Shown: piece after piece, positions 11,359 to 37,254 of the stretch
How positions within the stretch are numbered: position 1 is the stretch's first letter
Layout of the letters: the number at the start of each line of letters is the position of its first letter
Assembly (NCBI GenBank): GCA_018895275.1
Contig: JAHIOQ010000051.1
Location: 46,409-110,408, forward strand
Reading direction: 5' to 3'
Length of the DNA: 64,000 nucleotides
Source: Candidatus Omnitrophota bacterium
Lineage (GTDB): Bacteria; Omnitrophota; Gorgyraeia; B26-G9
Position numbers and translations under genes: made by a program
The notes under the pieces: generated by a model
Seen by the model: only the letters and a program-made list of their open reading frames with translations
What the model was told of the DNA's origin: nothing
The model's database searches: none

Positions 11359-11395
11359 GGACGCAGATGAACGCAGATTTACAGGATTTTAAAAT
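11359..11395. repeat. solo TIR of the GACGCAGAT..CGCAGAT element family (third copy, one end only)
   Basis: The sequence GGACGCAGATGAACGCAGATTTACAGGATTTTAAAAT matches the TIRs at 638-675 and 63099-63136. Confidence 0.5.
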
Positions 11396-11480
11396 AATTC
11401 TTATGCAGAGCATATGCTGCATCTACAATTCTTTCAGCAATGGATTCCTCTTTTTCTGACAAGGGTTCAAAATTCATACC
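11379..11480 (-). pseudogene. GxxExxY family gene fragment (first about 27 codons) fused to a TIR repeat
   Basis: Minus-strand MNFEPLSEKEESIAERIVDAAYALHK matches the N-terminal helix of GxxExxY proteins (compare the intact gene 33258-33671, LTEKVIGAAMEVHRILG). It is cut off just before the GxxExxY motif where the TIR begins. The 66-aa ORF 11379-11579 in the track is a chimera of a repeat plus this fragment. Confidence 0.5.
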
Positions 11481-11653
11481 TGTGCCCGTAAGGGTATCTT
11501 TCCTTTGTGCCTTGGTGCCTTGGTGGCTAAAATTTCTACAATTATCCGCCAAATTTTTATTTTTTCTCGCCATGAACATATTCTAGAAATCTCTATTTAT
11601 CTATCCTTATCATCTGAGCTATCAGCGATGAGACAGGAGACAGGAAGATCCAC

Positions 11654-13750
11654 TCAAGGCCTTAGCCGCCGCGGAAAAAGTTCTGCCGCCTTGTCCCGTG
11701 CCTTGCGCGCCTTGTCCTTAGAGCCCTTACGCTCGTAAAAGGCAGCAAGATTATAATATGCCTCAAAATAAGCCGGGTTTATTTCCACCGCCTTAAGATA
11801 GGCTTCTTCAGCCGCGTCATCCTGCCTCATATTTTCATAGATAATACCCAGGTGATTAAATACCGGCGCAAAATTCTCATTAAGCTCCTGTGCCTGTTTA
11901 AGCAGCCTTAACGCATCGTCAAAATCACCTTTTGTACCGTAAGCAGCGGCCAGATTTACCATTGTGCCCACGTCCTCATGGTCGATCGATAATGCCTGCC
12001 CGTAATACTGCATTGCCTCATCGGTCTTGCCCTGACGGGACAATGCCAGGCCGATATTCGTGTACGCGGCCGTATCCTGGGGGTCTTTGTCGATTACCTT
12101 TTGGAAATGCTTAATCGCCGCGTCAAAATTCCCCCGTTCAAGCTCAAGCACGGCTAAATTGTATAATGTATCCGGATTATTTTGATTCATGCGCCAGGCC
12201 TGTTCAAATGACTTTTTCGCCCGTGCATAATCGCCCTTATATTGAAATGCCGTACCCAGATTAAAAAACCAGCGGGATGTATCCTCATCAGCCACGCCGA
12301 ACAAGCGCGAATTACAATATATAAACATTAACAAGAAAACAGCCAGTGAAATAAAAAAGGCCTTATATTTTTTTTCTTTTAAAATACGGCACCACCACAA
12401 AAGCCCCGCACCCGCGAACATAATAAAATACGGCAATATCGGCGCGCGGTAGCGGCTGACGACAAAGAAGATGAGCATAAGCAGCAGATGCGCGGCAATA
12501 AATAAAATCAGCAGCATGATTCCCTTATCTCTTTTAAATGAAACCCCGATGCCGAGCAGCGCCAAGGGGCAAATTATGCCGAACGGAAACAAAATGAGCG
12601 GATGCGCAAAAACCAGCATCTGCAGCAGCGGCGACCATAACCGGAAAAAATAGATGCTTTGGTTTTCCGGAATTTCATAGCCGTTGAACAGGTAATAGAA
12701 TTTACGCATCAGCAGGCCTATAAAATGCATCGGTTGAGTAAAAACATATTCCCCTGTTTTTATCATCCAGTAATTGGAAACCTCGGAAGGCTGCATCTTT
12801 CTTCCGGTAGCGCGTTCTGCCGCTTTTATGGAAGAAACCCAGACATTATCCTCCCAGCCCTTATAAGAAAAATCCCGTGTCGGCGGCACCGCGCTCTTCC
12901 CGTCAGCCATAGGATTATTGCCGATATAAAGATTGATGCCGGCTGAGGAAGAAAGCAGGACAAAGTTTCCGCCTCCCAGATAATTACGTAAAGAAAAAGG
13001 CAGCACCGACAAAACAGTGCCCAGAAAAAGAAAAATCACCGACTGAAAGGCAATTTTATTAACGATTATCTTCAGCTTGCCTGCGAGTTTTTGTGGAGGC
13101 ACTGCCGTTTGCTCTTGTTTCTGCTCTTTTTCCAAGCTGAAGAAATATACCCAAACGCAAAGCATCGGAAAAAACATAATGATATTCACGCTGGTTTGCA
13201 GGCTAATGCCGAAGAGTACACCGCAGCTGGCCCATTTCCATAAGGCGGGTTTTTCCATGCAGCGCAAAAGCGCAAGCAGAAGAATAAGATTAAGGCAGAT
13301 TGTCAGGCCGACACTTAGAAACTCCGCGTCAAAATAGATCAAGACCCCGGAAAGGCTGCAGACAAGCGCAGCCCATGCGCCGATGCAACGGTTAAACACT
13401 TTTTTACCCAGCATATAGACCAGCACACAGTTAAAAGCTCCCATGATCATCTGCGCTACACGGGCAGCAACAAAGCCCTTACCTAAAAATTTAAAAAGTA
13501 ACGCCAGAAAATAAATATAGAGCGGAACCCTTGGCATAACAACCCCTTTAACAAACCAGTCCCCCGCAGAAAGACGTAAAGCCCCACCATAGTGAGAAAG
13601 AGCATCAATAATCGGGCTTGTAAAAAAAGGCGAGTTCCTGTATTGGTAAAGGTATACTAATCGTAAAAAAAACCCGACAAGAAAGATTCCCCAAACAAAG
13701 AATAGTTCTTTGAGCCGTAAATACTTTATTTCTTTTTTTTCCATATCCAT
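11654..13750 (-). CDS. GT-C fold glycosyltransferase (PMT_2/ArnT-like, GT39/GT83-type) with a C-terminal TPR repeat domain
   Basis: 698 aa. About 11 N-terminal TM helices resemble dolichyl/undecaprenyl-phosphate-sugar dependent transferases. The C-terminal 230 aa consist of 6-7 TPR repeats (AxxYxxLGxxY patterns). Confidence 0.65.
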   Translation of the reverse strand: MDMEKKEIKYLRLKELFFVWGIFLVGFFLRLVYLYQYRNSPFFTSPIIDALSHYGGALRLSAGDWFVKGVVMPRVPLYIYFLALLFKFLGKGFVAARVAQMIMGAFNCVLVYMLGKKVFNRCIGAWAALVCSLSGVLIYFDAEFLSVGLTICLNLILLLALLRCMEKPALWKWASCGVLFGISLQTSVNIIMFFPMLCVWVYFFSLEKEQKQEQTAVPPQKLAGKLKIIVNKIAFQSVIFLFLGTVLSVLPFSLRNYLGGGNFVLLSSSAGINLYIGNNPMADGKSAVPPTRDFSYKGWEDNVWVSSIKAAERATGRKMQPSEVSNYWMIKTGEYVFTQPMHFIGLLMRKFYYLFNGYEIPENQSIYFFRLWSPLLQMLVFAHPLILFPFGIICPLALLGIGVSFKRDKGIMLLILFIAAHLLLMLIFFVVSRYRAPILPYFIMFAGAGLLWWCRILKEKKYKAFFISLAVFLLMFIYCNSRLFGVADEDTSRWFFNLGTAFQYKGDYARAKKSFEQAWRMNQNNPDTLYNLAVLELERGNFDAAIKHFQKVIDKDPQDTAAYTNIGLALSRQGKTDEAMQYYGQALSIDHEDVGTMVNLAAAYGTKGDFDDALRLLKQAQELNENFAPVFNHLGIIYENMRQDDAAEEAYLKAVEINPAYFEAYYNLAAFYERKGSKDKARKARDKAAELFPRRLRP

Positions 13751-15246
13751 AATTTTAGAGTGGGAAAAACAAGTTTATCAAAAATAGTACGCAAAACAAA
13801 CAAGGGCTTCTTAAATATAAACATATTATATTTACTGAAAAATTTAAACGGATTTCTTAAAATTAATTTAAGATTATATGTCCAGTACCATTTTCGCCTT
13901 AAGTTTTCAAGAAAATTGCCGTCAAACTCCTCTGTCTGAAATTTGGACTTGAAGTAATCGAAACAGGTATCATCTTTATTGTCTTTGAAATAGCCTTTTT
14001 TTTTGCAGTAATCATATATTTCAGTTCCCGGCAAAGGATTCGCGATAAACAAGGAAACTCTATCCAGCCTGATCTTATCCATAAACTCCAGGGTACGATA
14101 AATCTGAGCCTTAGACTCTCCAGGAAAGCCGATCATAAAAAAACCATATGTATCAATCCCATAGTCCTTAATCAGTTTTACTGTTCTTACTATCTGCCGC
14201 AAATCTGTAGGCTTTTTCAGGACATCACGCAATATCTGTTCATCACCGCTTTCAACCGCAAGCGTTAGCTCATAACAACCGCTTTGTTTCATAAGGCTGA
14301 CCATTTCTTCATCAAGTGTCTGCGCGGCAATCCCATTGGGAGTATTCCAGCTAAAGTTAAATTCGCGTTCGATCATGCCGCGGAAAATATCTTTTGCCCT
14401 TTGAGAATCTAAAGTCAGGTTATCATCGAAAAATTTAAGTTCTCGAATACCAATGGATTTAAGGTGTTCCATTTCTTTGAGCACGCCCTTAACTGAACGC
14501 GGCCTGTAAGTTCTGCCCCAGAAATGACAGGAACTGCAGAAAGCGCATTGAAAAGGACAACCGCGGGAGGTAATCATATTCATTGCCGGAGACTGACGGC
14601 TAATCAGCCCCATGGGTAGCCCAATACGAAAATATTTTTCTAAAGGAAGCAAATCTCTTGCCGGCATTGGAATTGAATCAATATCTTCAATTAAGCGCGC
14701 CCGGGGGTTTATCCTCACCTTTTCGTTATCTCGGAAAGCAATCCCGTCTATAAGGCTAAAATCATCGCCCGATGAAATAGAATCCATAAGTAATTTAAAA
14801 GGCTTCTCACCTTCCCCGAGCACGACAAAATCAATGTTTTGATCGTTTAAGCACTCATGCGGTAAAAAGGTGGGATGCGTGCCGCCGATAACAGTGATGA
14901 TATCCTTTGATACTGATTTTGCAGCTTCGCATATCTGCGCTACCACGGAAAACTGGCTGGAGTAAAGACAAGAAATCCCGACTGCGCCCGGATCAAATCT
15001 GCTTATATGATTTTTGATCTGTTCTATGGACAGTCCGTAGCAAAGAAATTCCCCCTTTATCTTCCTTTCTGAATTATAGCCTTCTACAGCAGCATCAAGC
15101 AGCCGTACATCATAATCATTGCGTAAAAAAGCGCCAAGATACGTTATCCCCAAAGGCGGCATTATCTGCTTTGGGCTTTCCGAGGAAAAAACCACGGGAG
15201 GAAAAATCAGAAGAATTTTTTTTATATCCCGGCTCGAGATTATCAT
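13726..15246 (-). CDS. B12-binding domain-containing radical SAM protein (class B)
   Basis: It has an N-terminal cobalamin-binding Rossmann-like region (ILLIFPPVVF..PPLGITYLGAFL) and a radical SAM core with SRGCPFQCAFCSS. It overlaps both neighbouring genes. Confidence 0.8.
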   Translation of the reverse strand: MIISSRDIKKILLIFPPVVFSSESPKQIMPPLGITYLGAFLRNDYDVRLLDAAVEGYNSERKIKGEFLCYGLSIEQIKNHISRFDPGAVGISCLYSSQFSVVAQICEAAKSVSKDIITVIGGTHPTFLPHECLNDQNIDFVVLGEGEKPFKLLMDSISSGDDFSLIDGIAFRDNEKVRINPRARLIEDIDSIPMPARDLLPLEKYFRIGLPMGLISRQSPAMNMITSRGCPFQCAFCSSCHFWGRTYRPRSVKGVLKEMEHLKSIGIRELKFFDDNLTLDSQRAKDIFRGMIEREFNFSWNTPNGIAAQTLDEEMVSLMKQSGCYELTLAVESGDEQILRDVLKKPTDLRQIVRTVKLIKDYGIDTYGFFMIGFPGESKAQIYRTLEFMDKIRLDRVSLFIANPLPGTEIYDYCKKKGYFKDNKDDTCFDYFKSKFQTEEFDGNFLENLRRKWYWTYNLKLILRNPFKFFSKYNMFIFKKPLFVLRTIFDKLVFPTLKLWIWKKKK

Positions 15247-16745
15247 TGTTTTATAATTCTGTTAATATCCGCAAGCGTGGTCCGTATTGTCATAACCGGA
15301 TGCGTGACAATCATCGTAAAAAACTTTTTAAAAAAACGGATGGGATGACGAAATAACAGCGTCAACAGATAAAGATTAAATTGCGACAACACCAGCTTTT
15401 CGACCTCACGGGAACTCATGTCTTCAGTTTCTATATTAGCATAATCAAATGCGATATCCTCAAAGGAAAAATCTTCCTTCAAGAAGCCCTTCTTTTTACA
15501 AATCTCGTATAGTTCAGAACCAGGCACAGGATTGGCAATGAAAAACCATGCGCAATCAAGGTCTTGTTTCTTAGCAAAGTCAAACGTATTCAATATATGT
15601 TCTTTTTTTTCCCCGGGCAACCCCGCGATAAAATATCCATTAACCTGTATTTCTAATTTTTTCATTTTTTCTGCCATAGAGCTTGCGTGTTTTAGATTTA
15701 ACGGTTTTTTAATTATTTTATCCAAGACTTCCTGGTTTCCGCTTTCAAAAGGAATGTTTACCTCATAACATCCGCTTGCCTTCATAAGTTCAAGCATCTC
15801 CTCGTCGATTGTCCACATCGCGATTCCGCTCGGCGCCGACCAATAAACCTTAAACCTGCGGTCTATAATTCCCTGAAAAATCTGCCGAGCCCGTTTTTTA
15901 TCAAGCGTTAAATTATCATCGACAAACTGTATCTCTTTTATTCCGTATTGCTTAACCAAAACCTCGATCTCATCCAAAACATTCTTCGCCGAACGACCTC
16001 GATAAATATTACCCCAGTAATTATTTGTTGCACAAAAAATACATTTTGACGTACAACCACGGCTTGTCAGGACAGAAGCATTCTTCCGGCTTTTAAAGGT
16101 GATGCTAAAAGGCACGCCTTTTTTTTCGTAAAACTTTAACGGAAGCAGGTCAATTGCCGGAAACGGCAGGACATCAAGATCTTTAATAAATTTTGTCTTC
16201 GGATTAATCGCAAAAGAACCATTTTTGCGAAAAGCCAGCCCGTCAATATCTGTATAATTTTGGCCTGTATCTATCTTCTGCAGCAATAGTTTAAATGAAT
16301 CTTCCCCTTCCCCTAAAATAATGAAATCAATATCACCATTCTTAGACATCGTCTCCTCTGCTAAAAATGTAGGGTGAGTGCCTCCGAGAACTGTTATGAT
16401 TTTTTGGTCATTTTTTTTAATAAGCCTGCAAAGCTTACTGATTTCTGGAAAATGAAAAGAAGACAAACAGCTAATACCAACAACGTCCGGTCCGTAAGCT
16501 GTGATTTTTCGAATAATTTCTTCTAAGGTATAGCCGTAATAGTCCCATTTGCTCTTCCGGGAAGTAATCGTTTGAAACTTTGCTCTGCCGTCTATAATCC
16601 GCACATCAAAATCATTCCGAATAACCGCCGCAAGGTAGGCCAGCCCTAATGGCGATTCGCAGTGTTGAAAATGGCCTCTGAGGACTTTCCCCGGCGGATA
16701 CATGAGCAAAACATTTTTTATTTTCTTTTTAATCAGCCCCGGCAT
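15243..16745 (-). CDS. B12-binding domain-containing radical SAM protein (class B)
   Basis: It has the same architecture, with LLMYPP..PLGLAYLAAV and TSRGCTSKCIFCAT. The ATGA stop and start overlap with the upstream gene. Confidence 0.8.
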   Translation of the reverse strand: MPGLIKKKIKNVLLMYPPGKVLRGHFQHCESPLGLAYLAAVIRNDFDVRIIDGRAKFQTITSRKSKWDYYGYTLEEIIRKITAYGPDVVGISCLSSFHFPEISKLCRLIKKNDQKIITVLGGTHPTFLAEETMSKNGDIDFIILGEGEDSFKLLLQKIDTGQNYTDIDGLAFRKNGSFAINPKTKFIKDLDVLPFPAIDLLPLKFYEKKGVPFSITFKSRKNASVLTSRGCTSKCIFCATNNYWGNIYRGRSAKNVLDEIEVLVKQYGIKEIQFVDDNLTLDKKRARQIFQGIIDRRFKVYWSAPSGIAMWTIDEEMLELMKASGCYEVNIPFESGNQEVLDKIIKKPLNLKHASSMAEKMKKLEIQVNGYFIAGLPGEKKEHILNTFDFAKKQDLDCAWFFIANPVPGSELYEICKKKGFLKEDFSFEDIAFDYANIETEDMSSREVEKLVLSQFNLYLLTLLFRHPIRFFKKFFTMIVTHPVMTIRTTLADINRIIKQ

Positions 16746-16803
16746 AAGATTTTCCTTTTAAAACCGCTCAATTTAATTTTAAAGGCGCTCAACAAAAAAT
16801 AAT

Positions 16804-17847
16804 TTATGCTCCCTTAAAAAGATGCGCGTATTCTTCCCTGAATTTTTTGTCATTTAAAGGACATTCATTCCATTCTTTTCTTTTTTTTATCATTTCCGAA
16901 TCCCACATGCGTTTCAGGATTGCCGGCAAAGGCTCCTGCCGCACATTGCCGAAAGGCACGGGCATAAAACAGCACGGTTGAACATCTCCGTAAGCGGAAA
17001 CATAAAACCACATTCTTTTAAACGCGCTGCAAAGAAAGGGGATATTCTCATCATCAATATATTTTATTTCCCAGAATACCTTGTTATGCTTCAGCTTCTG
17101 CCGTAACAACTTCATCTCTTTTTCTCCCAGCATCACATCATCCCGCTGCGTAAATCTTCCGCTGCGTATCGGCGAAAGGACTCTCAAACACACCCCCAAC
17201 TCGCCGGCTAAAGCGATTAGCCGGTCTAAAGACCCATCCTGCAAAGATTTTTTCACGGCATAAGTAGAGATATACGCTTCTATATTCCTATCCCGGCAAT
17301 GAGATATCCCCTGAACCGCCTTCTCGAAAAGCCCGTTCACTCCGCGTAAACCATCGTGGATATCCCCGGAAGCGCTGTCAATGCTCACGCCGACAAAGTC
17401 TATGCCGCTTTTTTTTAAACGGGAAACATTCTCCTCATTAAGCAAAAAACCATTGGTATCAATGCGGGTTATCATCCCCTTTTCCCTCGCGTAGGAAATT
17501 ATATCAAAAATATGTCCGGCAAGCAGCGGCTCTCCGCCGAGAAAATGAATTTCACTTACACCCATACTCACTGCTTCATCTATAACCCGGATAATTTCCT
17601 CGCGGGTCAATTCCTGTTTAGAATCATCCTTTCTGTATGAGGCATAACAATGCGCGCATTTGCACTGGCAATTATAATTCAAGGCAATCATCATCGTAGA
17701 GTCAAACAAAAATACAACTGCCGGGAAATAACGCGCGATTATTTTATAATAGGCGTAGAGCAGAAACTTCACCGCCCGGTTGTGATAAAAAGGAATTACA
17801 AACGAACGTTTTAAACGATTAAACAGTCTTAAAAGCATTAATTTCAA
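16804..17847 (-). CDS. radical SAM protein with a C-terminal SPASM/twitch-like domain
   Basis: It has the CxxxCxxC motif NCQCKCAHCY, a glycine-rich SAM motif GGEPLL, and C-terminal cysteines CSAF...GDVQPCCFMPVPFGN typical of SPASM domains. Confidence 0.6.
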   Translation of the reverse strand: MKLMLLRLFNRLKRSFVIPFYHNRAVKFLLYAYYKIIARYFPAVVFLFDSTMMIALNYNCQCKCAHCYASYRKDDSKQELTREEIIRVIDEAVSMGVSEIHFLGGEPLLAGHIFDIISYAREKGMITRIDTNGFLLNEENVSRLKKSGIDFVGVSIDSASGDIHDGLRGVNGLFEKAVQGISHCRDRNIEAYISTYAVKKSLQDGSLDRLIALAGELGVCLRVLSPIRSGRFTQRDDVMLGEKEMKLLRQKLKHNKVFWEIKYIDDENIPFLCSAFKRMWFYVSAYGDVQPCCFMPVPFGNVRQEPLPAILKRMWDSEMIKKRKEWNECPLNDKKFREEYAHLFKGA

Positions 17848-17962
17848 TTTTAATCCGCCTTACTACGGAAAGATCCAAATTTCAAAATATAAAATAGTAT
17901 AACATAAAAGCCGATACAGCACAATTTGACATAAAAATCCGGCTGTGTTACATTAAATCTCT

Positions 17963-19381
17963 ATGAATATAGCACTCATTCGACCTCCCAAAATCAGCGG
18001 CGCCTTTGAGAAGATATTGATTCAGGAGCCGGTCAATATTGCCTATCTGGCCGCTTTCCTCAAGGCAAAGGGGTATCAGGTCTGCATCTGGGACTTTGAG
18101 GTCGAGCCGTTTACCGAGAGCGCGGTGCGGGAAAAAATCTCCCGGTTTTCAGCGGATGTTGCCGCGATAACCGCGATGACTCCGACGATAAATAACGCGC
18201 ACGAAACAGCGCTAATGCTTAAGAAAATCAAACCCTCAATAGTTATCGTTGCCGGAGGCGCGCATGTATCGGCTTTACCGGAAGAAACTTTGCGCGACTT
18301 TCCCGCGTTTGATTATGTTGTCGCCGGCGAGGGAGAAATTCCCCTGGCTGAGCTTTGCCGGAAAGTCGCGAAAAAACAGGCCCCCTCGGAGGTTCCCTGC
18401 GTTGCCTGGCGAAATAACGGGACAATAACCTTAAACAAACCGGGCTTGCCGATAGAAGACCTGGACTCCATCCCCTTTCCACAGCGCAGCCTTTTTAATC
18501 CGCTGCTCTATAAGAACGCCTATGCCGCGGGGATTTCCATGTACGGAAAACGCTCCACGGTTGTATTTACTTCCCGCGGCTGTGCGCAGGATTGCACCTT
18601 TTGCGCCGTGAAAAAGACATCCGGGCCCCGCGTAAGATTCCGCAGCGCGGAGAATGTGATTAAGGAGCTCACCGAATGCCGCGACATATTCGGATATAAT
18701 CACATTACATTTGAGGATACAAACCTCACCCTTAACCGCGAACGCTTCCTTAATATATGCGCAGGCCTGCGCAAACTAAAACTTACCTGGGACTGCCAGA
18801 CAAAGGTGAGCCTTGTTGATAAAGAATTAATCGATATAATGAAGGCCGGCGGCTGTTTGAAGATCGCTTACGGCGTAGAATCAGGAAGCCCGAAAATGCT
18901 CGCTTTAATGAAGAAAAACATAACCCCGGAACAAATCCGACGCGCGTTTCAACTCACGCATCAGGCCGGGATTGTCGCCTGCGGTTTTTTTATCCTCGGC
19001 ACGCACCCGGAAGAAACGAACGATGATGTGCGGCAAACAGAAGCCCTGATTCATGAAATCAAGCCCGATGTGTTTCAACTGGGGATTATTTGCCCTTATC
19101 CGGGTACCGAGATATATTCGATCATGAAAAAAGAAGGGCTTCTTCCGCAGGCCGACTGGAAAAAGTTCAACTTCATGCACAGCCGTCCGCAATGGGGAAC
19201 AAAACATCTTAGCCCTGCCGCGCTTGTGTCCTGGCAAAAAAAGATTTATATGCGTTATATCTTAACACCGCATTTCATTCTATTCGTATTCAGGAAAATG
19301 CTCAATCCGCGCGAAATCCCGCAGACAATCCGATTAGGCCTGTCCCTGCTCAAATACCTTCTCCTTGAAAAACGCGGCTGA
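17963..19381 (+). CDS. B12-binding domain-containing radical SAM protein (class B)
   Basis: It has IALIRPP..PVNIAYLAAFL and TSRGCAQDCTFCAV. It is the only plus-strand gene of the cluster. Confidence 0.8.
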   Translation: MNIALIRPPKISGAFEKILIQEPVNIAYLAAFLKAKGYQVCIWDFEVEPFTESAVREKISRFSADVAAITAMTPTINNAHETALMLKKIKPSIVIVAGGAHVSALPEETLRDFPAFDYVVAGEGEIPLAELCRKVAKKQAPSEVPCVAWRNNGTITLNKPGLPIEDLDSIPFPQRSLFNPLLYKNAYAAGISMYGKRSTVVFTSRGCAQDCTFCAVKKTSGPRVRFRSAENVIKELTECRDIFGYNHITFEDTNLTLNRERFLNICAGLRKLKLTWDCQTKVSLVDKELIDIMKAGGCLKIAYGVESGSPKMLALMKKNITPEQIRRAFQLTHQAGIVACGFFILGTHPEETNDDVRQTEALIHEIKPDVFQLGIICPYPGTEIYSIMKKEGLLPQADWKKFNFMHSRPQWGTKHLSPAALVSWQKKIYMRYILTPHFILFVFRKMLNPREIPQTIRLGLSLLKYLLLEKRG

Positions 19382-20114
19382 GAACGGCCCTGTACTGCTT
19401 CGCGATGAACCCCGGATATTCAAATATCGTGCGGAATATCTTCATTTTGCTCTTTCCCGAACGCAGGTCAAAGCGCAGGGAGACCGGCACTTCCGATACC
19501 TGCGGGGCAAAAACGCGCAGTTTCACGAGAATCTCCGCCATGCAGGAAAACCCCGCCTGCTCAACAAAATTCCCGCCGAAAACCGACAATGCCTTTTTTA
19601 CGAGCCCTACCCGATAGGCACGGAAAAACGTCGTGTAATCCCGCGCGCCTTTTAACGGAAAACAAACACGAAGCAGGCCGTTAATCGAATCGCTGAAAAC
19701 CAGCCGCAGAAACGGCAATTTCACAGCCTCGCTCTTTTCATGATAACGCGAAGCGATAACGATATCGCTGCCGCCTTCCACGGCCTTGATCATCGCCGGA
19801 AACGTATCCGCGGGATGCGTGCGGTCGCAATCCAGGGAAATGAGGATATCCTCATCCGCGGCCTCTGAGCAAACAGCCTTAAACCCGGCCTTAAAAACAT
19901 TTCCCACGCCGCGGTTCGTTTTAAAATCAATAACTTCCAGAGGCAAACGCCCGTGCCATTTCCCTAAAATATCTCCGGTCGCGTCGGTGCTGCCGTCGTT
20001 AACCACGTAAACCTTAAACGGCTTTTTTAATCCGGACAAAACTTCATTTATACGGACAAGCACCGCGGTAATGTTTTTTTCTTCGTTATAGGCCGGTAAT
20101 AAAACAAATATCAT
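19350..20114 (-). CDS. family 2 glycosyltransferase, DPM1/ArnC-like polyprenyl-phosphate sugar synthase type
   Basis: 254 aa. It has the GT-A N-terminus LLPAYNEEKNI and the DxD-type region VVNDGSTDAT. There are no C-terminal TM helices. Confidence 0.75.
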   Translation of the reverse strand: MIFVLLPAYNEEKNITAVLVRINEVLSGLKKPFKVYVVNDGSTDATGDILGKWHGRLPLEVIDFKTNRGVGNVFKAGFKAVCSEAADEDILISLDCDRTHPADTFPAMIKAVEGGSDIVIASRYHEKSEAVKLPFLRLVFSDSINGLLRVCFPLKGARDYTTFFRAYRVGLVKKALSVFGGNFVEQAGFSCMAEILVKLRVFAPQVSEVPVSLRFDLRSGKSKMKIFRTIFEYPGFIAKQYRAVLSRVFQGEGI

Positions 20115-21019
20115 GTTCCCTCTTTTATTTTTTCCACGAGCATCTGCGTGGTCAGAAGCTCATACGTTTGACACATCTTTTTAAGCATCATTTCACAGCG
20201 GCGCTCCCTTTCGGCTAAACTGCCGAAAAAAGGAATTTTAACCTTGTGTTTTTTAAGATCAACCAAATCTATGCCGTGAAACAGATAGGATAGCATTATA
20301 TTTCTTTTTTCAAGCGAGCGCAACCCGTAATCGAATAAAGGCATTCCGAATATAAACACATACGTGCTGTGCATCGGCAGCCGCCAACGGGGAAGAACGC
20401 TTATCCCTACCTCGTACAGCGCTGCCTTTCCGGCAGAGGCCGGGTCCAGTTCATCCGGGGTATATACGCCTAACGGAGCACGTCCGAAGCAAACACCGCC
20501 GCCCTGCATTCTCACCGGTTTTTTTTGCAAAAGCGAATGCAACAAGTTAATAATCGCCGGCATATACGCGGACGGGATAACCGACGCATCATATAAATAC
20601 CCCATCTCCCGGAGAATACGCATAACCCGCGCATTGATACTAAACATCGGCGCGCGAAACCCCACCGGCCCCTTACCGGTCAATCCCTGCAGCTGCGCAT
20701 GCGCCTGCCGGATCTCTCTTTCCTGTTCCTTTACGCTAAGACTGCGGAAATGAAGCGGATGCGTCATGCTGTGATTGGCAATTTCATGCCCTTGCGCGAT
20801 TATTCGCCGCAGGATCCGCTGCCTCGCGGGTATAGCGGCATCCTTACCCACGACAAAAAAAGTCGCCTTTATCCCGCAGCGGCTGAACATCCCTAAAAAC
20901 CGTTCCAAGCCTTCCGCAAAAACCGGGTCATTTGCGTTATCCGCGGCAAACCGCTGACACGGCAGATAACGCTGATACGTCCACAAGGCATCAAGGTCAA
21001 CCTGTATTGTCCCGAACAT
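20111..21019 (-). CDS. polysaccharide deacetylase family protein (NodB homology domain)
   Basis: The product has NodB-type motifs including HEIANHSMTHP and a later Arg/Pro motif. The ATGA overlap with the GT2 gene indicates coupling. Confidence 0.7.
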   Translation of the reverse strand: MFGTIQVDLDALWTYQRYLPCQRFAADNANDPVFAEGLERFLGMFSRCGIKATFFVVGKDAAIPARQRILRRIIAQGHEIANHSMTHPLHFRSLSVKEQEREIRQAHAQLQGLTGKGPVGFRAPMFSINARVMRILREMGYLYDASVIPSAYMPAIINLLHSLLQKKPVRMQGGGVCFGRAPLGVYTPDELDPASAGKAALYEVGISVLPRWRLPMHSTYVFIFGMPLFDYGLRSLEKRNIMLSYLFHGIDLVDLKKHKVKIPFFGSLAERERRCEMMLKKMCQTYELLTTQMLVEKIKEGT

Positions 21020-22265
21020 ATTTACTCCTGATGTATCCGGCGATGATTCGGCTTTTAACCGCCGCGGTGTTAAATGTTTTCAGCAGGCGGCCTTCGGCGA
21101 GTAATTCCGGGATAAAAAGCCCGGCCGGGAATTCGGCAACATCCTTCCTGGCTAGGAGAAACTCCGGCGTAAGCACCGGCTCCACATCGCAATCGGAAAA
21201 AACAAAATACTCATTCACCCAATCCGGCTTAAATCCCGGCGCAATCAGCTTTAGATACTCAATACATTCAGCCAAAAAAATCTCCGGCGTTTTGTTTTCC
21301 AAAACGCGCTGATAAACCGGAAAATAAACAACCGGCATTCCGTTAATCGCGGAGGTATCGATAACCACCTTCATGCCCTTTTGCGGATGCCGAACCATAA
21401 ACAGCCAGTATCCTTTTTTTAAGGGCTGTTTAAGCGATAAAAGCAGCGAGCGTACGCATAAATATTCCGGCGCGCAGGCATGGCCGATAACCCGCGTAAA
21501 ATCCGGACAGAGCAATTTCGTTTGCTTAACCGGCAGACAGCAAACCACACAGTCATATGTTATTGTTCCGGTTTTCGTTTTCAGCTGCCATTTATCCGCG
21601 CCGGCCGGGGCTATCTGCTCTACGTCCGTATCAAACATGAATTTCCCGCCCCGGCAGGATATCACCTCTTCCAAACGCTGCCATAACATATTCAATCCGC
21701 CGCGCAGGCTACCGATGCGCGTATTTTTTTTCTCTTTTAGCCGCGCCCAGATATACGCGGCACTCACATTTTCCGCGGCCCCAAATTTAAATTCCAGCAA
21801 AGGCCGAAAAAAACGTTCATAGCAATCAAGGCCGCATTCATTTTTAAGCCATTGCGCGGCGTCCTTCTCCAGCAACGCTCCGCTGTGTTTACGGCGATAA
21901 TTACGCAGCATAAACCAGGCCAGGCGCAATAAAGCCATTTTTGAGGCTGAGGAGCGGTTCCCGTCTACGTATGCCTCTTTTACCTTTGCCCAATACAATG
22001 AACCGCTCAGCCCAAGCGCGGCAATTACGCGGATAAGCTCCGTGTCGGATTTTGAGAAAAAATGGTTATACCGTTCTATAGTGGCTCCATCATGCCTGAA
22101 AATACCGCCCAGTCCGCCGCAGCGAGCCTCCTTTTCATAAATCGTTACCGCGCATTCCGGCAGCAAATGATACGCGCTCAGCAAGCCGCTGATTCCGGCC
22201 CCGATTACCGCTACCTTCATGTCATGGCCCTGTCCCGGCCTTTGCGCGCAAACAGCAAAGACCAA
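20997..22265 (-). CDS. FAD/NAD(P)-binding oxidoreductase (amine oxidase / UDP-galactopyranose mutase-like fold)
   Basis: It has the N-terminal dinucleotide-binding motif KVAVIGAGISGLLSAYHL followed by EKEARCGGLGG. The specific function is not clear. Confidence 0.55.
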   Translation of the reverse strand: MVFAVCAQRPGQGHDMKVAVIGAGISGLLSAYHLLPECAVTIYEKEARCGGLGGIFRHDGATIERYNHFFSKSDTELIRVIAALGLSGSLYWAKVKEAYVDGNRSSASKMALLRLAWFMLRNYRRKHSGALLEKDAAQWLKNECGLDCYERFFRPLLEFKFGAAENVSAAYIWARLKEKKNTRIGSLRGGLNMLWQRLEEVISCRGGKFMFDTDVEQIAPAGADKWQLKTKTGTITYDCVVCCLPVKQTKLLCPDFTRVIGHACAPEYLCVRSLLLSLKQPLKKGYWLFMVRHPQKGMKVVIDTSAINGMPVVYFPVYQRVLENKTPEIFLAECIEYLKLIAPGFKPDWVNEYFVFSDCDVEPVLTPEFLLARKDVAEFPAGLFIPELLAEGRLLKTFNTAAVKSRIIAGYIRSKYVRDNTG

Positions 22266-23623
22266 AAAATTTTACACGCCGTAATAAACCGCCGAAAGTT
22301 TCCAATTGACCGCAGCCTTTTCCAAACATAGCCGGGACGAAAATAGAATTCGCGGACTGCCTGGTTTCGCATTAGCCATATCTTCTGCCTGCTCAAAAAT
22401 TCATTCCCCAGCACCGGAAACTTTGTGCGGTCAAAGGAATAATTGTCCTTTAGATGCGGATTCGCCTCCTCCAAGCGGCCGCGCAGCGCTGAACCGAAAT
22501 CCGGCACAAACACGGAGAATGCCGCGTAATCGCAGTCAAGCTCGCGGGCAAAGCCGATTGTCTGCCGCATGCTCGCCTCGTCTTCTCCCGGCAGGCCGAT
22601 TATAAAGAATCCGATCGTTTCGATGCCTTCTTTTTTGCAAAGTGAAAAGGCCTGTTTTACCGCACTGTTTTTTATCGGCTTTGCCAAGGCCCGCAATACG
22701 GTTTCATTCTTTGATTCCACGCCGAACTGTATCGTATGACATCCCGCCCGTTTCATAAGCCCTGCTAATTGCGCGTCAAAACAATCTGCCCGTGTCAAAC
22801 AATCCCAGCTTAGGTTGGTTTTTTCTTTAATCATCGCCCGGCAGATTTCCGCCGCATGCTCCCGGTCGGCGGTAAACGTAAAATCGGGGAAATGGATTTC
22901 GCTTATGCCCGCCCTGCGCAGCGCGATTAATTCCTCCAGGACATCGCCCCGGTTACGCAAACGAAAAGGCACGCCGGCACTCGAACAAAAACGGCATGCG
23001 TAGGGACAGCCGCTGCTGATAATCGCGCAGGTAAACGGAAACCTTCTTGCCTGCGGAGTACGGTAAGCGCGTAAAGGAAAAAGCTCATGGCGCGGCATTG
23101 GATAGGAAAACTCTTTCCCAGACATATCCCGTGCATTGTTAATAACAACACGCCGGCCGCGGCGGTAACCTAATCCGGGATAATCAGTGCACGGCCCCTG
23201 CACGAGGAAATCAATAATCCCTTTTTGCGTATAGTCAAGGATTAGCGCATCCAGAAAATCAAACCTTTCCAGAAAATCAGCGGGCTTCTCGCGCAAAAAC
23301 CCTCCGTTCGCGATCATCAGCGGCCCGCCATCGCTTTTTATTTTAGCGAATAAGGCAAAATCCTCATCCCGGCTTGCCGAAGAGGTAAGCGCGATAACCG
23401 CGTAAAAATCCCCCTCACGGATAATATCCAGGACGTGCTTCATCCCGTATCCCTGGACAATGGCATCGATAACCTTAATTTCGAAAACGTTATGCAGCAT
23501 ACCGCTTAAAACTAAAAGGTCAGCGGCCGGCCAGTAGTAATCGGCTTTTGCCGCGGAACTACAGTGCTGGTCGCGCAGATAACGGTTTCTGCCGGGAGGA
23601 TTTAAGAGAAGTATTTTTTTCAT
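22217..23623 (-). CDS. B12-binding domain-containing radical SAM protein (class B)
   Basis: It has the KKILLLNPP N-terminus and a SSGCPYACRFCSS cluster motif. It is the first gene of the minus-strand cluster, diverging from rpoN. Confidence 0.8.
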   Translation of the reverse strand: MKKILLLNPPGRNRYLRDQHCSSAAKADYYWPAADLLVLSGMLHNVFEIKVIDAIVQGYGMKHVLDIIREGDFYAVIALTSSASRDEDFALFAKIKSDGGPLMIANGGFLREKPADFLERFDFLDALILDYTQKGIIDFLVQGPCTDYPGLGYRRGRRVVINNARDMSGKEFSYPMPRHELFPLRAYRTPQARRFPFTCAIISSGCPYACRFCSSAGVPFRLRNRGDVLEELIALRRAGISEIHFPDFTFTADREHAAEICRAMIKEKTNLSWDCLTRADCFDAQLAGLMKRAGCHTIQFGVESKNETVLRALAKPIKNSAVKQAFSLCKKEGIETIGFFIIGLPGEDEASMRQTIGFARELDCDYAAFSVFVPDFGSALRGRLEEANPHLKDNYSFDRTKFPVLGNEFLSRQKIWLMRNQAVREFYFRPGYVWKRLRSIGNFRRFITACKIFWSLLFARKGRDRAMT

Positions 23624-23976
23624 CTCGCTAAGAGTATAACATAAGCGACCGTTGCGAGCAAACCCGGATACTTTCGGCGTGAAAGATTCCCGTAGCTCCT
23701 AAGAGCTATTTACCTTGCAAATTTATTGAGGAAAAATATAGTTGTTTGTTAATATTATTTCTTTTGACTGCCTCTTCTGTGTTTCCTGCTTGCTTTAACA
23801 TGGGACTTCATATATAATTAAATTAGTAATGGCACAATTTGCATGAAAATCACAATTTTCAAGCACCAAATTATGCCGTCACTATGGGATACCGAAGAAA
23901 TTTTTAAAAGAAGCGCTTCATTCGGGACAAATAGTTACCAAAACTAAATTTTCATTTAAATCCATACAGAGGTAAA

Positions 23977-36612: not shown

Positions 36613-37254
36613 TTATGCCTTCTTTTTTCTTCTTGTGGAAGTAAGCATACCTATAATACCGGTTCCTAACAACAATAAACTGCTCGGCTCAGGAATAACA
36701 TCGCCATCAATATCATCATAATAAGCAGACCCCGCCCCGGGGAAATACGGGTCGACTGCTCCCCACATAGCCAATGTATAACGAACCGAAAGAGTTCCTG
36801 CAGGAGCCGGGGTTGAAGTAAGCTCAACATATTGCCACCCCTGCGTCCCGCCAATCACGGGTGTAGTGTCAATTGCTGCAATAGGTTCTATAGCATATCC
36901 CGGATTAGTAACGTTAAAATATGCTATCTGTAATGTAGCATTTGCCTGGTCATTAAGATTTTGCACATTAATCCAACCCTTCAAGTAATTTACAGCACCT
37001 GCAGTGGCCGGACGATTCTGATACCTACCTCCCCATCCATCACCCGCAACCGGTGACTCCATGTTCATCTGTAAACCATAACTACCTGAATGAGCAGCCG
37101 CAGAATTAATATTAACTGTGTGAAATCCAAGTAATGTCCATGGCGTTACATAACCTGTTTCAAAACCAGAATTTGTCAACGTGTTCGCGCGAGCTATTGC
37201 CGGGCACACCAACATCACCACAACCAATAAAATAACTATTCTTTTCATATTCAT
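36613..37254 (-). CDS. PEP-CTERM sorting domain protein
   Basis: The C-terminus VIPEPSSLLLLGTGIIGMLTSTRRKKKA has the PEP motif, a TM helix and a basic tail. It has a signal peptide. The start was set at MNMKRIV, which has an AAAGGAGGTGA Shine-Dalgarno. Confidence 0.8.
   Translation of the reverse strand: MNMKRIVILLVVVMLVCPAIARANTLTNSGFETGYVTPWTLLGFHTVNINSAAAHSGSYGLQMNMESPVAGDGWGGRYQNRPATAGAVNYLKGWINVQNLNDQANATLQIAYFNVTNPGYAIEPIAAIDTTPVIGGTQGWQYVELTSTPAPAGTLSVRYTLAMWGAVDPYFPGAGSAYYDDIDGDVIPEPSSLLLLGTGIIGMLTSTRRKKKA

Follow-up and report, generated by a model that had tools for sequence, protein, structure and literature searches.

What does an uncultured bacterium of the Omnitrophota make with a cluster of nine genes in which radical SAM enzymes lie beside glycosyltransferases and a sugar deacetylase? 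The window analysed here, a stretch of 64,000 nucleotides, had previously been described in a sequence-only reading as holding these nine genes, eight of them on the minus strand, and the ORF list confirmed both the number and the positions (Table 1). The domains assigned in that reading were all found by Pfam at a threshold of E<=0.001, with the exception of B12-binding in rSAM9, and CxxxCxxC is present in the translations of all five radical SAM proteins. In the profile search, none of the locus enzymes reached a curated NCBIfam cutoff; a literature search found no published account of this gene set, in agreement with the earlier view that no characterised pathway contains it. The answer favoured here, with modest confidence, is that a conserved eight-gene locus builds an aminosugar on a membrane lipid carrier, where four radical enzymes remodel it, and then joins the product to the cell envelope.

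Table 1. Features of the locus, in window coordinates.
Feature	Coordinates	Strand	Remarks
GT-C + TPR	11654-13750	-	PMT_2 and many TPRs; last gene of unit 2
B12a	13726-15246	-	Pfam B12-binding and Radical_SAM; class-B-type radical SAM
B12b	15243-16745	-	Pfam B12-binding and Radical_SAM; class-B-type; paralogue of B12a
SPASM/twitch-type radical SAM	16804-17847	-	Pfam Radical_SAM, Fer4_12 and SPASM
Divergent intergenic region	17848-17962		between unit 2 (-) and B12c (+); read from the sequence
B12c	17963-19381	+	Pfam B12-binding and Radical_SAM; single-gene unit
GT2	19350-20114	-	Pfam Glycos_transf_2
NodB-family (CE4) deacetylase	20111-21019	-	Pfam Polysacc_deac_1
FAD oxidoreductase	20997-22220 (ATG 22220, NCBI call); 20997-22265 (ORF list)	-	Amino_oxidase, DAO, NAD_binding_8
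rSAM9	22217-23623	-	Pfam Radical_SAM only; first gene of unit 1
Upstream intergenic region of unit 1	23624-23976		shared with divergent rpoN; from the ORF map
rpoN	23977-25425	+	rpoN domains found

Organisation and conservation of the locus

The cluster had been called operon-like, with overlaps of 4-25 nt between its genes. Such overlaps do occur at five junctions (22217-22220, 20997-21019, 20111-20114, 15243-15246 and 13726-13750), the first of these, 4 nt between the rSAM9 stop and the FAD oxidoreductase start, depending on the start called by NCBI. The SPASM and B12b genes, however, are 58 nt apart, and B12c, which diverges from unit 2, converges on the GT2 gene with a 32-nt overlap; the locus is therefore three transcription units and not one operon. 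Directly upstream of B12c lies a promoter-like TTGACA-17-TACATT (17926-17954), the best in the scanned region, as a consensus match only.

The eight genes other than the SPASM gene are collinear in six further Omnitrophota/PVC contigs, and the chance adjacency considered earlier was not borne out. Protein identities across these genes range from 36 to 66% (L002, L004, L005/6, L007/8), while L164 has the same eight-gene Pfam architecture and an rSAM9 (P0044) that is 56% identical. At least nine further contigs, paired between two homologue searches by their equal lengths, appear to hold both rSAM9 and GT-C orthologues. The divergent rpoN/rSAM9 arrangement is kept in all related loci and the flanking housekeeping genes, rpoN and pyruvate kinase, are likewise syntenic, which indicates that conservation within the Omnitrophota is partly vertical inheritance of a stable chromosomal region. 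The eight-gene grouping is far more than chance. That the genes share no pathway and are held together by this stable region alone is highly improbable: the synteny of the housekeeping genes and the difference in G+C between the two halves (~0.41 at 12-18 kb, ~0.50 at 18-24 kb) would agree with it, whereas within units neighbouring genes share sequence at their start and stop codons and the same functional set is found in other bacteria in another order and context, with a non-homologous deacetylase.

The radical SAM enzymes

The signature radical SAM enzyme of the locus is rSAM9, which is related to HpnJ and AprD4. Four B12-binding radical SAM proteins had been proposed, and this was upheld by Pfam for B12a, B12b and B12c, the only three in which a class-B architecture is demonstrable; the fourth, rSAM9, has a divergent, Rossmann-like N-terminal domain without a B12-binding match at the Pfam threshold, and looks AprD4-like in its modelled fold. 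Its best NCBIfam model is HpnJ (137 bits, cutoff 577.6), aligned end to end over residues 3-438, and the AprD4 family model scores 91.9 bits (cutoff 500). The best Foldseek match of its AF2 model (pLDDT 89.5) is AprD4 with paromamine bound (6FD2; TM 0.77/0.79, E 8e-24, 22% identity). AprD4 is a dehydratase that needs no cobalamin, has the glucosamine ring of paromamine as its target and requires a partner reductase, the NAD(P)H-dependent AprD3. Orthologues of rSAM9 with 55-59% identity occur in six of six related loci, and more than 1000 relatives were recovered at E<=1e-20.

In many metagenome contigs of other bacteria, the rSAM9 family adjoins ArnC-type GT2 genes. Where the rSAM9 homologue has at least 1.5 kb on each side (38 metagenome loci), a GT2 of the ArnC/AglJ/PgfS type directly adjoins it in 16 loci and is found no more than 5 kb off in 25; as background, such GT2 genes make up 3 of the 156 ORFs beyond 5 kb and 9 of the 1304 ORFs of control loci. 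The order rSAM9-YdjC-GT2-PMT_2 GT-C is found in L092, L093, L094 and L096, with an ArnC-like GT2 (~200 bits) and, in L092-L094, an acetyltransferase next after the GT-C; the YdjC deacetylase of related loci is HpnK-like (197 bits, cutoff 232.6). In L080 and L084 the order is NodB, B12 radical SAM, GT2, rSAM9, and B12c-like genes flank the GT2-rSAM9 pair in these two loci as well as in L088, L099, L100 and L105. An FAD oxidoreductase is also present in L090 and L105, and B12a-like genes in a few rSAM9 loci (e.g. L108 and L112). Outside the Omnitrophota, B12a, B12b and the FAD oxidoreductase rarely accompany rSAM9, which makes the case for tying them to the sugar less strong.

The Sden_1168 P-methyltransferase family, with a cutoff of 575, is the best NCBIfam model for B12b (265 bits) and scores 304 bits for B12a. 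The two proteins are 42% identical, and the orthologues of B12a and B12b share 58-66% and 60-62% identity, respectively. For B12c, the best NCBIfam model is HpnJ (214 bits, cutoff 577.6); tblastn places the gene, at 62-63% identity and with its orientation kept, in each related locus searched, and in L164 a convergent counterpart encodes 472 aa. The housekeeping clades that had been named as a possible home for these enzymes were not recovered, as the cutoffs for BchE, for a coproporphyrinogen oxidase and for all other curated families lie above the scores of every radical SAM protein here.

The fifth radical SAM protein carries a SPASM domain (29.5 bits, cutoff 21.5) and has AhbD as its best NCBIfam model (138 bits, cutoff 500). 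It had been counted as a member of the cluster; its gene has no counterpart in any of the six relatives (L002, L004, L005/6, L007/8, L164) and is thus a window-specific insert, in a slot that is variable (L007 has two extra B12 radical SAM genes there). This enzyme is an optional, genome-specific accessory outside the conserved system. A precursor-peptide ORF, which the earlier reading had suggested looking for near it, did not materialise, as no small ORF there is conserved. A protein or peptide target, in which the class-B enzymes would C-methylate a secreted protein or RiPP precursor as QCMT, PoyC and ApyD do, the SPASM enzyme would crosslink it and the TPR-bearing GT-C would O-glycosylate it, is very unlikely. 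The nearest solved structure to B12a is the protein glutamine C-methyltransferase QCMT/MgmA (9CCB, 7e-26), the ApyD and rSAM_ocin models match full-length at sub-threshold scores, the TPR domain suggests a protein ligand, and PEP-CTERM proteins and an exosortase locus lie within the same window. Set against this are the absence of the SPASM gene from all relatives, the spaces of only 58 and 115 nt that flank it, a 66-aa ORF (11379-11579) with no Pfam match and no counterpart elsewhere, and the higher scores of the Sden_1168 and HpnJ models over the RiPP models.

The glycosyltransferases, deacetylase and oxidoreductase

The GT2 protein (Glycos_transf_2, 77.5 bits) has as its nearest solved relatives, in a PDB sequence search, Pyrococcus DPMS (5MLZ, 1.3e-23), ArnC (3e-12) and GtrB (1e-9), and its top NCBIfam models, all under cutoff, are Dol-P-hexose transferase, ArnC, PgfS, AglJ and PpgS. 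Its DXD motif (D95, D97) is kept in 44 homologues. Judged by its sequence, it falls in the polyprenyl-phosphate sugar synthase clade (DPMS, ArnC, GtrB). The NodB protein (Polysacc_deac_1, 73 bits) keeps the D-x-D, HxxxH, RxP and His motifs (D8/D10, H83/H87, R122/P124, H248), residues that the Omnitrophota orthologues share, as do four to five of the relatives outside the phylum that adjoin rSAM9 homologues; motif 1 is missing from the ORF calls in L085 and L086. With no signal peptide seen at its N-terminus, it is predicted to be a cytoplasmic metal-dependent deacetylase of the NodB (CE4) family. The carrier logic earlier ascribed to the GT2, deacetylase and GT-C thus fits both the placement of the GT2 and the intact NodB motifs. 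Running against the carrier-aminosugar reading, no flippase gene and no nucleotide-sugar gene were found inside the cluster, and the GT2 is short, lacking the TM helices that ArnC and GtrB have at the C-terminus.

The GT-C protein (PMT_2, 41.5 bits, cutoff 26.1) is PMT_2/GT39-like; its ~11 TM helices are followed by a fused TPR domain (~200 aa) at the C-terminus. Its 698-aa start is backed by orthologues of 673-691 aa, and the NCBI call of 627 aa looks truncated. Structure prediction, which had been suggested as a check against ArnT and PMT, showed a GT-C fold with ArnT as the nearest solved structure. In architecture and predicted topology the protein is akin to TMTC1-4, the eukaryotic O-mannosyltransferases (PMC7801869): both have ~11 TM helices, C-terminal non-cytoplasmic TPRs, a first outer loop with an acidic residue and an extended loop between TM7 and TM8, and for both ArnT is the nearest solved structure. 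The TMTCs have a DUF1736 loop and a DD motif, and take Dol-P-Man as donor to modify cadherins.

An unlikely alternative is a head-group pathway of the HpnI/K/J kind, in which the GT2 would glycosylate a membrane lipid alcohol directly, with no carrier, the NodB protein would deacetylate the product, rSAM9 or B12c would turn the glucosamine ring, by contraction, into an aminocyclitol in ether linkage (compare the BHT cyclitol ether or calditol), and the other class-B enzymes would methylate the lipid. HpnJ is the best NCBIfam model of both rSAM9 and B12c, the related loci encode the HpnK-like YdjC deacetylase, and hopanoid cyclitol ether synthesis likewise runs from a GT through a deacetylase to a radical SAM enzyme (PMC13459092). 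The HpnJ scores are, however, far under the cutoff; the GT2 belongs with the polyprenyl-phosphate synthases and has no HpnI model among its matches; the GT-C, whose family takes its sugars from lipid phosphates, is retained both here and in remote relatives of the locus; and neither hopanoid nor other lipid-synthesis genes were found among the annotated ORFs of the window.

The FAD oxidoreductase scores 214 bits against NF005560 (cutoff 252) and is related to NCBIfam PRK07233, under its cutoff. A PDB profile search returned PPOX, PF1083, phytoene desaturase and weak UGM matches, by which the protein can be assigned to the PPOX/phytoene desaturase/amine oxidase superfamily. By tblastn, each related locus searched has an orthologue with 36-41% identity, and L164 has a gene of the same family at the equivalent position. 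These relationships also bear on another proposal, likewise unlikely: the radical SAM and FAD enzymes would methylate, cyclise, saturate or desaturate an isoprenoid chain, either that of the carrier or that of some other membrane lipid, and the GT2, NodB and GT-C proteins would handle an ordinary aminosugar. Many members of the PPOX/CrtI/HpnE superfamily act on isoprenoids, distant relatives of the FAD enzyme adjoin LPG_synthase_TM membrane proteins, among the radical SAM enzymes that modify lipids several belong to class B or are linked to B12 (PMC13459092), and homologues of lipid-modifying radical SAM genes have been reported in Omnitrophota (10.1101/2023.10.20.563219). The fold of rSAM9, on the other hand, is nearest to that of a sugar-ring dehydratase, its steadiest partner across phyla is a GT2 or deacetylase and not a lipid-synthesis gene, and the ladderane-type lipid model scores 78-123 bits against a cutoff of 360.

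Known systems and the proposed pathway

The module had been likened to the Arn system, and its GT2/deacetylase/GT-C logic stands. The Arn system itself was rejected: there is no ArnA/ArnB-type gene, and the ArnC model, with its cutoff of 529 bits, gives 57.7. Nothing in ArnC/ArnD/ArnT, the L-Ara4N modification of lipid A, corresponds to the radical SAM genes, and the GT-C carries TPRs where ArnT has its periplasmic domain. By analogy, LgmABC and the NaxD-dependent lipid A galactosamine pathway would be closer to the GT2/deacetylase/GT-C part, and HpnI/K/J or paromamine-AprD4 closer to the sequence of GlcNAc transfer, deacetylation and radical SAM action on the glucosamine ring. In Bordetella, LgmA, LgmC and LgmB are the GT2, deacetylase and GT-C, respectively, and FlmF2 and FlmK are names linked to lipid A aminosugar pathways of the Lgm/NaxD type. 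As proposed for the present locus, and in the same order, the Bordetella Lgm and Francisella/Acinetobacter NaxD systems combine an ArnC-like GT2 that forms polyprenyl-P-HexNAc, deacetylation on the carrier and an ArnT-like GT-C that transfers the aminosugar outside the membrane: NaxD deacetylates Und-P-GalNAc ahead of its transfer to lipid A, and glucosamine modification of lipid A requires lgmA-C (PMC11279074; PMC4993483). Their YdjC deacetylase family is also used by distant relatives of this locus. They lack radical SAM enzymes, an FAD oxidoreductase and TPRs on the GT-C, and their acceptor is lipid A, whereas this locus has a NodB-type deacetylase and four to five radical SAM genes.

The HpnI/HpnK/HpnJ and calditol synthase (Cds) systems share a GT, a deacetylase and a radical SAM enzyme acting on a glucosamine ring, HpnJ having been proposed to ring-contract BHT-glucosamine (PMC13459092). 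Here, by contrast, rSAM9 and B12c reach between one quarter and one third of the HpnJ cutoff, the GT2 belongs to the carrier-lipid type and not to HpnI, the unit includes a GT-C and hopanoid genes are not found in the window. Contraction of the ring in the HpnJ manner would give a carbocyclic phosphate, no ordinary donor for a GT-C, and this speaks against the carrier-aminosugar reading. The paromamine route follows the same order of GlcNAc transfer, deacetylation and radical SAM, and AprD4 depends on its reductase much as rSAM9 is translationally coupled to an oxidoreductase; unlike AprD3, the partner here is a flavoenzyme, and the presumed substrate is lipid-linked instead of a soluble pseudodisaccharide.

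Under the preferred carrier-aminosugar reading, the GT2, as suggested by its DPMS/ArnC/GtrB clade, would work at the cytoplasmic face and load polyprenyl phosphate with an N-acyl-hexosamine taken from a nucleotide sugar. The NodB deacetylase would then free the amine in the cytoplasm, as ArnD, NaxD, LgmC and HpnK do, a step to which the intact catalytic motifs and the substitution of NodB and YdjC deacetylases for each other in related loci both point. Taking into account its fold, gene coupling and conserved neighbourhood, rSAM9 may act on the exposed aminosugar ring, the candidate reactions being an AprD4-type 1,2-diol dehydration or an HpnJ-type rearrangement, and the coupled FAD oxidoreductase would complete the redox step, as AprD3 does for AprD4. 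Family resemblance suggests that B12a, B12b and B12c add further modifications, most likely C-methylations. After flipping, the GT-C would pass the tailored sugar to a periplasmic acceptor picked by its TPR domain. The locus is thus best read, at slightly better than even confidence, as a lipid-linked aminosugar pathway of the Lgm/Flm/Arn type to which radical tailoring has been added.

Layout and conservation of the locus

All nine ORFs proposed in the sequence-only reading are present at window 11654-23623, and their domains have been confirmed by Pfam, as listed in the table. Their description as a single operon-like cluster with 4-25 nt overlaps has to be revised, with such overlaps occurring at five junctions and the locus falling into three transcription units: rSAM9-FADox-NodB-GT2, (SPASM)-B12b-B12a-GT-C, and B12c by itself. 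This division follows from a 58 nt gap between SPASM and B12b and from the position of B12c on the opposite strand, where it converges on GT2 with a 32-nt overlap. Promoter-like sites (29, against 21.9±4.7 in shuffled sequence) and terminator-like sites (25, against 19.5±4.5) are not enriched and offer a weak hint at most. The G+C content is about 0.41 at 12-18 kb of the window, compared to about 0.50 at 18-24 kb. The GC skew is negative in all 2-kb bins of window 1-64000 and nearly all long ORFs lie on the minus strand, which fits a single replichore with a strong gene-strand bias. For the GT-C gene, the public annotation gives a protein of 627 aa, whereas a 698-aa ORF beginning 25 nt within B12a agrees with the orthologues (673-691 aa) in both length and N-terminal sequence, so that the deposited start looks truncated.

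Features of the window and of related loci. Coordinates refer to the window unless a locus is named; identity is that of the orthologues in the related loci L002, L004, L005/L006 and L007/L008 to the window protein.
Feature	Coordinates	Strand	Domains or content	Identity
66-aa ORF	11379-11579	-	no Pfam match	
GT-C	11654-13750	-	PMT_2 + long TPR array	54-60% (membrane domain)
B12a	13726-15246	-	B12-binding + Radical_SAM	58-66%
B12b	15243-16745	-	B12-binding + Radical_SAM	60-62%
SPASM	16804-17847	-	Radical_SAM + SPASM	
B12c	17963-19381	+	B12-binding + Radical_SAM	62-63%
GT2	19350-20114	-	Glycos_transf_2	54-58%
NodB	20111-21019	-	Polysacc_deac_1	44-49%
FADox	20997-22220/22265	-	Amino_oxidase / DAO / NAD_binding_8	36-41%
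rSAM9	22217-23623	-	Radical_SAM, nothing else	55-59%
Exosortase/PEP-CTERM exopolysaccharide locus	36613-61844	-	low G+C, 0.32-0.40	
PEP-CTERM protein	36613-37311	-		
Exosortase EpsH	39043-39855	-		
Second deacetylase	43947-44795	-	NodB+DUF3473	
Wzy_C	51708-53102	-		
B12b orthologue in two ORFs	L002 13274-14418		70 aa + 301 aa	
Distant FADox homologue	L010 8982-11182		PRK07233-like	
Distant FADox homologue	L011 6817-9169		PRK07233-like	
Radical SAM array	L112 1-16825			
Radical SAM array	L115 2480-15101			
GT2, radical SAM and Wzy_C trio	L156 8548-13373			

Six further contigs of the Omnitrophota/PVC group (L002, L004, L005/L006, L007/L008, L164) have been reached through orthologues of FADox and rSAM9. 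Searches with the window proteins (tblastn) showed the eight non-SPASM genes in identical order and orientation in L002, L004, L005/L006 and L007/L008, and L164 has a matching eight-gene Pfam architecture with an rSAM9 protein 56% identical to that of the window. At least nine additional contigs, paired by their identical lengths, appear to hold rSAM9 and GT-C orthologues together. This collinearity indicates a grouping beyond chance. Nonetheless, the conservation within the phylum, taken by itself, may in part be that of a stable chromosomal region, since the genes on either side (rpoN, a Big_5/PD40 protein, pyruvate kinase, PilZ and an ABC transporter) are syntenic in the relatives as well. 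A search of genome contigs with the FADox alignment, which keyed on a generic Rossmann motif, gave among its listed matches only Chloroflexi and Patescibacteria homologues of 24-28% identity, none of them with the cluster.

The SPASM enzyme has a C-terminal SPASM domain (PF13186, 29.5 bits against a cutoff of 21.5), and its proposed place in the system has not been borne out, with no counterpart detected in any of the six orthologous loci. A 301-aa radical SAM gene in L002, considered as a counterpart, was rejected, as together with a 70-aa ORF it makes up a B12b orthologue that has been split by a frameshift (pseudogene) or, alternatively, by an error of assembly. In L007, two extra, divergent B12 radical SAM genes occupy the interval between B12c and B12b, which, together with the absence of SPASM from the relatives, marks this interval as a variable slot. 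Accordingly, SPASM counts as an accessory gene confined to this genome. A look for a precursor-peptide ORF near it had also been suggested; no conserved small ORF adjoining the maturases was found among the cluster ORFs and related loci, and the gaps flanking SPASM are too short for one. Downstream of GT-C lies a 66-aa ORF with no counterpart in the related loci, which may be a gene fragment, since its C-terminal half (…SIAERIVDAAYALHKNYFKIL) is like the start of GxxExxY-type proteins. A protein- or peptide-directed system loses most of its support because the SPASM gene is unconserved and no conserved small ORF was detected, and is considered highly unlikely.

Radical SAM enzymes and their partners

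Each of the five radical SAM proteins has the motif CxxxCxxC, which is kept in their orthologues. The class B architecture, with an N-terminal B12-binding Rossmann domain and a radical SAM core, is established at the sequence level for B12a, B12b and B12c (PF02310 at 87-92 bits, cutoff 32.1, together with PF04055). A fourth B12-binding enzyme had been proposed in rSAM9, where PF02310 is not matched at E≤0.001, although a precomputed PF02310 match exists for a few members of its family. The predicted model of rSAM9 (pLDDT 89.5) has a Rossmann-like N-terminal domain, and its best structural match is AprD4 (TM 0.77/0.79, E 8e-24), followed by the cobalamin enzymes TsrM (TM 0.64), QCMT (0.59), OxsB and TokK. 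AprD4 is a radical SAM 1,2-diol dehydratase whose structure has been solved with paromamine bound (PDB entry), and it has a Rossmann-like N-terminal domain, yet binds no cobalamin (PMC12931638); a B12-binding architecture is thus established for three of the four proteins, whose use of cobalamin is predicted, with rSAM9 as a possible fourth. Considering that fold similarity is high and that rSAM9 scores 91.9 bits on the AprD4 family model (NF033070, cutoff 500), the predicted resemblance is structural rather than one of family membership.

No NCBIfam family cutoff is reached by any of the radical SAM proteins, and no curated family has been found there for rSAM9. The paralogues B12a and B12b, which share 42% identity, match best the Sden_1168 P-methyltransferase family (304 and 265 bits, cutoff 575). 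The closest NCBIfam family of B12c is HpnJ (TIGR03471), to which rSAM9 also aligns end to end; scores of 214 and 137 bits, respectively, against a cutoff of 577.6 speak against HpnJ orthology. The nearest solved structures to these enzymes by sequence are QCMT/MgmA (9CCB) and AprD4 (6FD2). Placement in the housekeeping clades that the sequence-only reading named as a refuting outcome (BchE, coproporphyrinogen oxidase) is contradicted by BchE scores of 93-186 bits (cutoff 481) and negligible HemN-type scores.

An Arn-like logic has been suggested for GT2, NodB and GT-C, and it stands in part. The closest solved relatives of GT2 by sequence are the Pyrococcus Dol-P-Man synthase (1.3e-23), ArnC (3e-12) and GtrB (1e-9), and its DXD aspartates D95 and D97 are kept in 44 homologues. 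This places its GT-A domain in the clade of DPMS/ArnC/GtrB-type polyprenyl-phosphate sugar synthases, with use of a polyprenyl-phosphate acceptor predicted. The protein reaches no equivalog cutoff (ArnC, NF007986, 57.7 bits against 529), and at 254 aa it is without the C-terminal membrane helices found in ArnC and GtrB. In NodB (PF01522, 73 bits), motif 1 (D8-x-D10), motif 2 (H83-x3-H87), motif 3 (R122-x-P124) and a late histidine (H248) are intact, and they are kept in all five of the Omnitrophota orthologues and, outside Omnitrophota, in four to five of the homologues adjoining rSAM9 relatives; motif 1 is absent from two ORF calls. No signal peptide was found at the NodB N-terminus, so the enzyme should act in the cytoplasm. 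The analogy fails for ArnA and ArnB, with no domains of this UDP-Ara4FN synthesis among the Pfam-scanned window ORFs.

FADox belongs to the PPOX, phytoene desaturase and amine oxidase superfamily (PRK07233, 214 bits against a cutoff of 252), with PPOX, PF1083, phytoene desaturase and, weakly, UDP-galactopyranose mutase among its PDB matches. These family matches do not point to a particular substrate. A pathway in which the isoprenoid chain is modified, and not the sugar, seems quite unlikely. In L010 and L011, contigs from unrelated bacteria, distant homologues (22-28% identity) immediately follow genes for LPG_synthase_TM (flippase-like) membrane proteins; this neighbour recurs, and the contexts are otherwise uninformative.

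By structure prediction, GT-C has a multi-pass GT-C fold (GT39/PMT_2, ArnT-like), whose first extracytoplasmic loop bears a conserved acidic residue, the invariant D49. Hydropathy indicates a basic N-terminus, about 11 transmembrane helices and a long loop (residues 252-384) between helices 7 and 8; as an odd number of helices precedes the TPRs, these are probably periplasmic. The predicted topology equals the one described for TMTC O-mannosyltransferases of eukaryotes (PMC7801869). Fusions of PMT_2 with TPRs are common among Omnitrophota, Zixibacteria and Planctomycetota.

The window also holds an exosortase/PEP-CTERM exopolysaccharide locus. In addition to the genes listed in the table, it includes a DUF3485 (EpsI-like) protein, a TPR protein, a GT4-family initiating transferase, a methyltransferase, GT2 and GT1 genes, UDP-GlcNAc 2-epimerase, a GH20-like protein, a flippase, GNVR/AAA_31 chain-length proteins and a secretin. 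The PEP-CTERM proteins are possible candidates for the acceptors of the TPR-bearing GT-C enzyme.

The rSAM9 family beyond the phylum

The rSAM9 family comprises more than 1000 proteins at E≤1e-20, and its members at 40-45% identity belong to other bacteria, among them MAGs named Coatesbacteria and Aminicenantes. Family-specific invariants, e.g. NPPG, RD-x-x-C and K-x-x-YYWP within the N-terminal domain, emerged from an alignment of 29 of these proteins. Metagenome contigs scanned with this alignment yielded 80 loci (27-43% identity), whose neighbouring genes were classed through HMMs from the Omnitrophota orthologues, clustering of adjacent ORFs and annotated cluster representatives. The commonest neighbour is a GT2, found in 45 of 81 loci. 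Where at least 1.5 kb was available on either side, it directly adjoins the rSAM9 homologue in 16/38 loci and lies within 5 kb in 25/38, compared to 3 of 156 among the ORFs lying beyond 5 kb and 9 of 1304 among those of unrelated control loci. These GT2s score best on AglJ, Dol-P-hexose transferase, ArnC and PgfS, all of them polyprenyl-phosphate sugar synthases. The association is robust and widespread, and it suggests, for a large enzyme family so far unannotated, a substrate hypothesis that can be tested.

Other neighbours are B12 radical SAM genes (16 loci), PMT_2/PMT GT-C proteins (7 loci and 4 in a second cluster), Wzy_C (O-antigen-ligase-like) membrane proteins fused to TPRs (19), hexapeptide acetyltransferases (18), deacetylases of the YdjC (6) or NodB type (4), and nucleotide-sugar/heptose-type genes (SIS, GHMP kinase, HAD, epimerase; 9-12 loci each). 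Four loci (L092, L093, L094, L096) share the order rSAM9, YdjC, GT2 and PMT_2 GT-C, followed by an acetyltransferase in L092-L094, with the YdjC protein at 197 bits on the HpnK model (cutoff 232.6) and the GT2 at about 200 bits on the ArnC model. The order in L080 and L084 is NodB, B12c-like radical SAM, GT2 and rSAM9, and an FAD oxidoreductase of the FADox superfamily is also included in L090 and L105. Four functions, namely rSAM9, a deacetylase, a carrier-type GT2 and a transferase dependent on lipid phosphate, are therefore met again in other genomic surroundings, where in some loci NodB is replaced by the non-homologous YdjC. This recurrence and substitution constitute the strongest argument for one pathway in which deacetylation of the GT2 product would be a required step. 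Set against the conserved chromosomal surroundings within the phylum, it leaves a mere gene neighbourhood with no common pathway most improbable.

Two further arrangements have been observed. In L112 and L115, eight to ten radical SAM genes, comprising rSAM9 homologues and B12a-, B12b- and B12c-like genes, stand almost back to back with hardly anything between them. A distant rSAM9 branch (L121-L163; 27-31% identity, ORFs of about 550 aa) shows a recurrent trio, in which the radical SAM gene stands between a GT2 of about 400 aa and a Wzy_C (O-antigen-ligase-like) membrane protein with fused TPRs. The SIS, GHMP-kinase, HAD and epimerase genes that often adjoin this trio suggest heptose or nucleotide-sugar synthesis.

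A proposed carrier-lipid aminosugar pathway

In aminoglycoside biosynthesis, a GlcNAc transferase and a deacetylase yield paromamine, the substrate of AprD4. Arn and the mycobacterial PpgS/Rv3779 pair represent another theme, in which a HexNAc-phosphate-polyprenol is made, deacetylated and transferred by a GT-C enzyme. The latter theme is also that of NaxD (PMC11279074) and LgmA-C (PMC4993483), and the former recurs in hopanoid cyclitol ethers, where HpnI, HpnK and HpnJ perform HexNAc transfer, deacetylation and radical SAM chemistry on the hexosamine ring (PMC13459092). By analogy, the window locus appears to combine both themes, and a five-step pathway is therefore proposed, for which we infer all substrates and reactions from the observed gene content, conservation, folds, catalytic motifs and neighbourhood statistics. 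GT2 would make a polyprenyl-phosphate HexNAc, NodB would free its amine, and rSAM9 with the translationally coupled flavoenzyme would deoxygenate or rearrange the ring. B12a, B12b and B12c would then introduce further changes, probably C-methylations, and, following flipping, the TPR-bearing GT-C would pass the product to a periplasmic acceptor. Among the weak points of this pathway are the absence of a flippase or nucleotide-sugar gene from the cluster itself, the lack of a membrane anchor on GT2 and the rarity with which B12a, B12b and FADox accompany rSAM9 outside the phylum.

A pathway of the HpnIJK type, working directly on a lipid head group, would account for the HpnJ likeness of B12c and rSAM9. 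In that system the deacetylase HpnK is of the YdjC type, whereas the window has NodB; likeness to HpnK is seen in some distant relatives, and the window ORFs scanned with Pfam include no hopanoid genes. The distant GT2-adjacent rSAM9 relatives were likewise rejected as HpnI-HpnJ pairs, with about 200 bits on HpnJ (cutoff 577.6) and GT2s of the AglJ/ArnC/PgfS type. Such a pathway is regarded as unlikely. Within the carrier-lipid pathway, we lean towards AprD4-like chemistry, since the product of an HpnJ-like ring contraction would be unusable as a donor by an ordinary GT-C.

It is tentatively proposed, as a possible reading, that rSAM9 represents a large uncurated AprD4/HpnJ-like family acting on polyprenyl-phosphate-linked aminosugars, the products being deoxygenated, rearranged (possibly carbocyclic) and C-methylated, and installed on the envelope of many uncultured bacteria by GT-C/Wzy_C-type transferases. 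The view that this gene set corresponds to no characterised pathway agrees with a literature search with scant cover of subscription journals, in which no described system joining radical SAM enzymes, a polyprenyl-phosphate GT2, a deacetylase and a GT-C was found. As a kind of system, the GT2/deacetylase/GT-C core is already known, which does not apply to the conserved additions: an AprD4/HpnJ-like radical SAM, a flavoenzyme and three class B radical SAM enzymes.

We know of no description of radical SAM chemistry on a lipid carrier, and tailoring of sugars at this stage is, to our knowledge, known so far mainly for deacylation. If the proposal is true, bacteria tailor sugars by radical chemistry while these are still on the lipid carrier, and unusual deoxy, branched or carbocyclic aminosugars would be expected on the surfaces of Omnitrophota and further uncultured lineages. 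A context would be given to more than 1000 radical SAM proteins that lack annotation, and a defined substrate hypothesis to enzymologists. It would also link three modules that follow one scheme of HexNAc transfer, deacetylation and radical SAM chemistry on the hexosamine ring, yet are usually treated apart, namely lipid A modification of the Arn/Lgm/NaxD type, head-group remodelling of the HpnIJK type and aminoglycoside deoxygenation of the AprD4 type.
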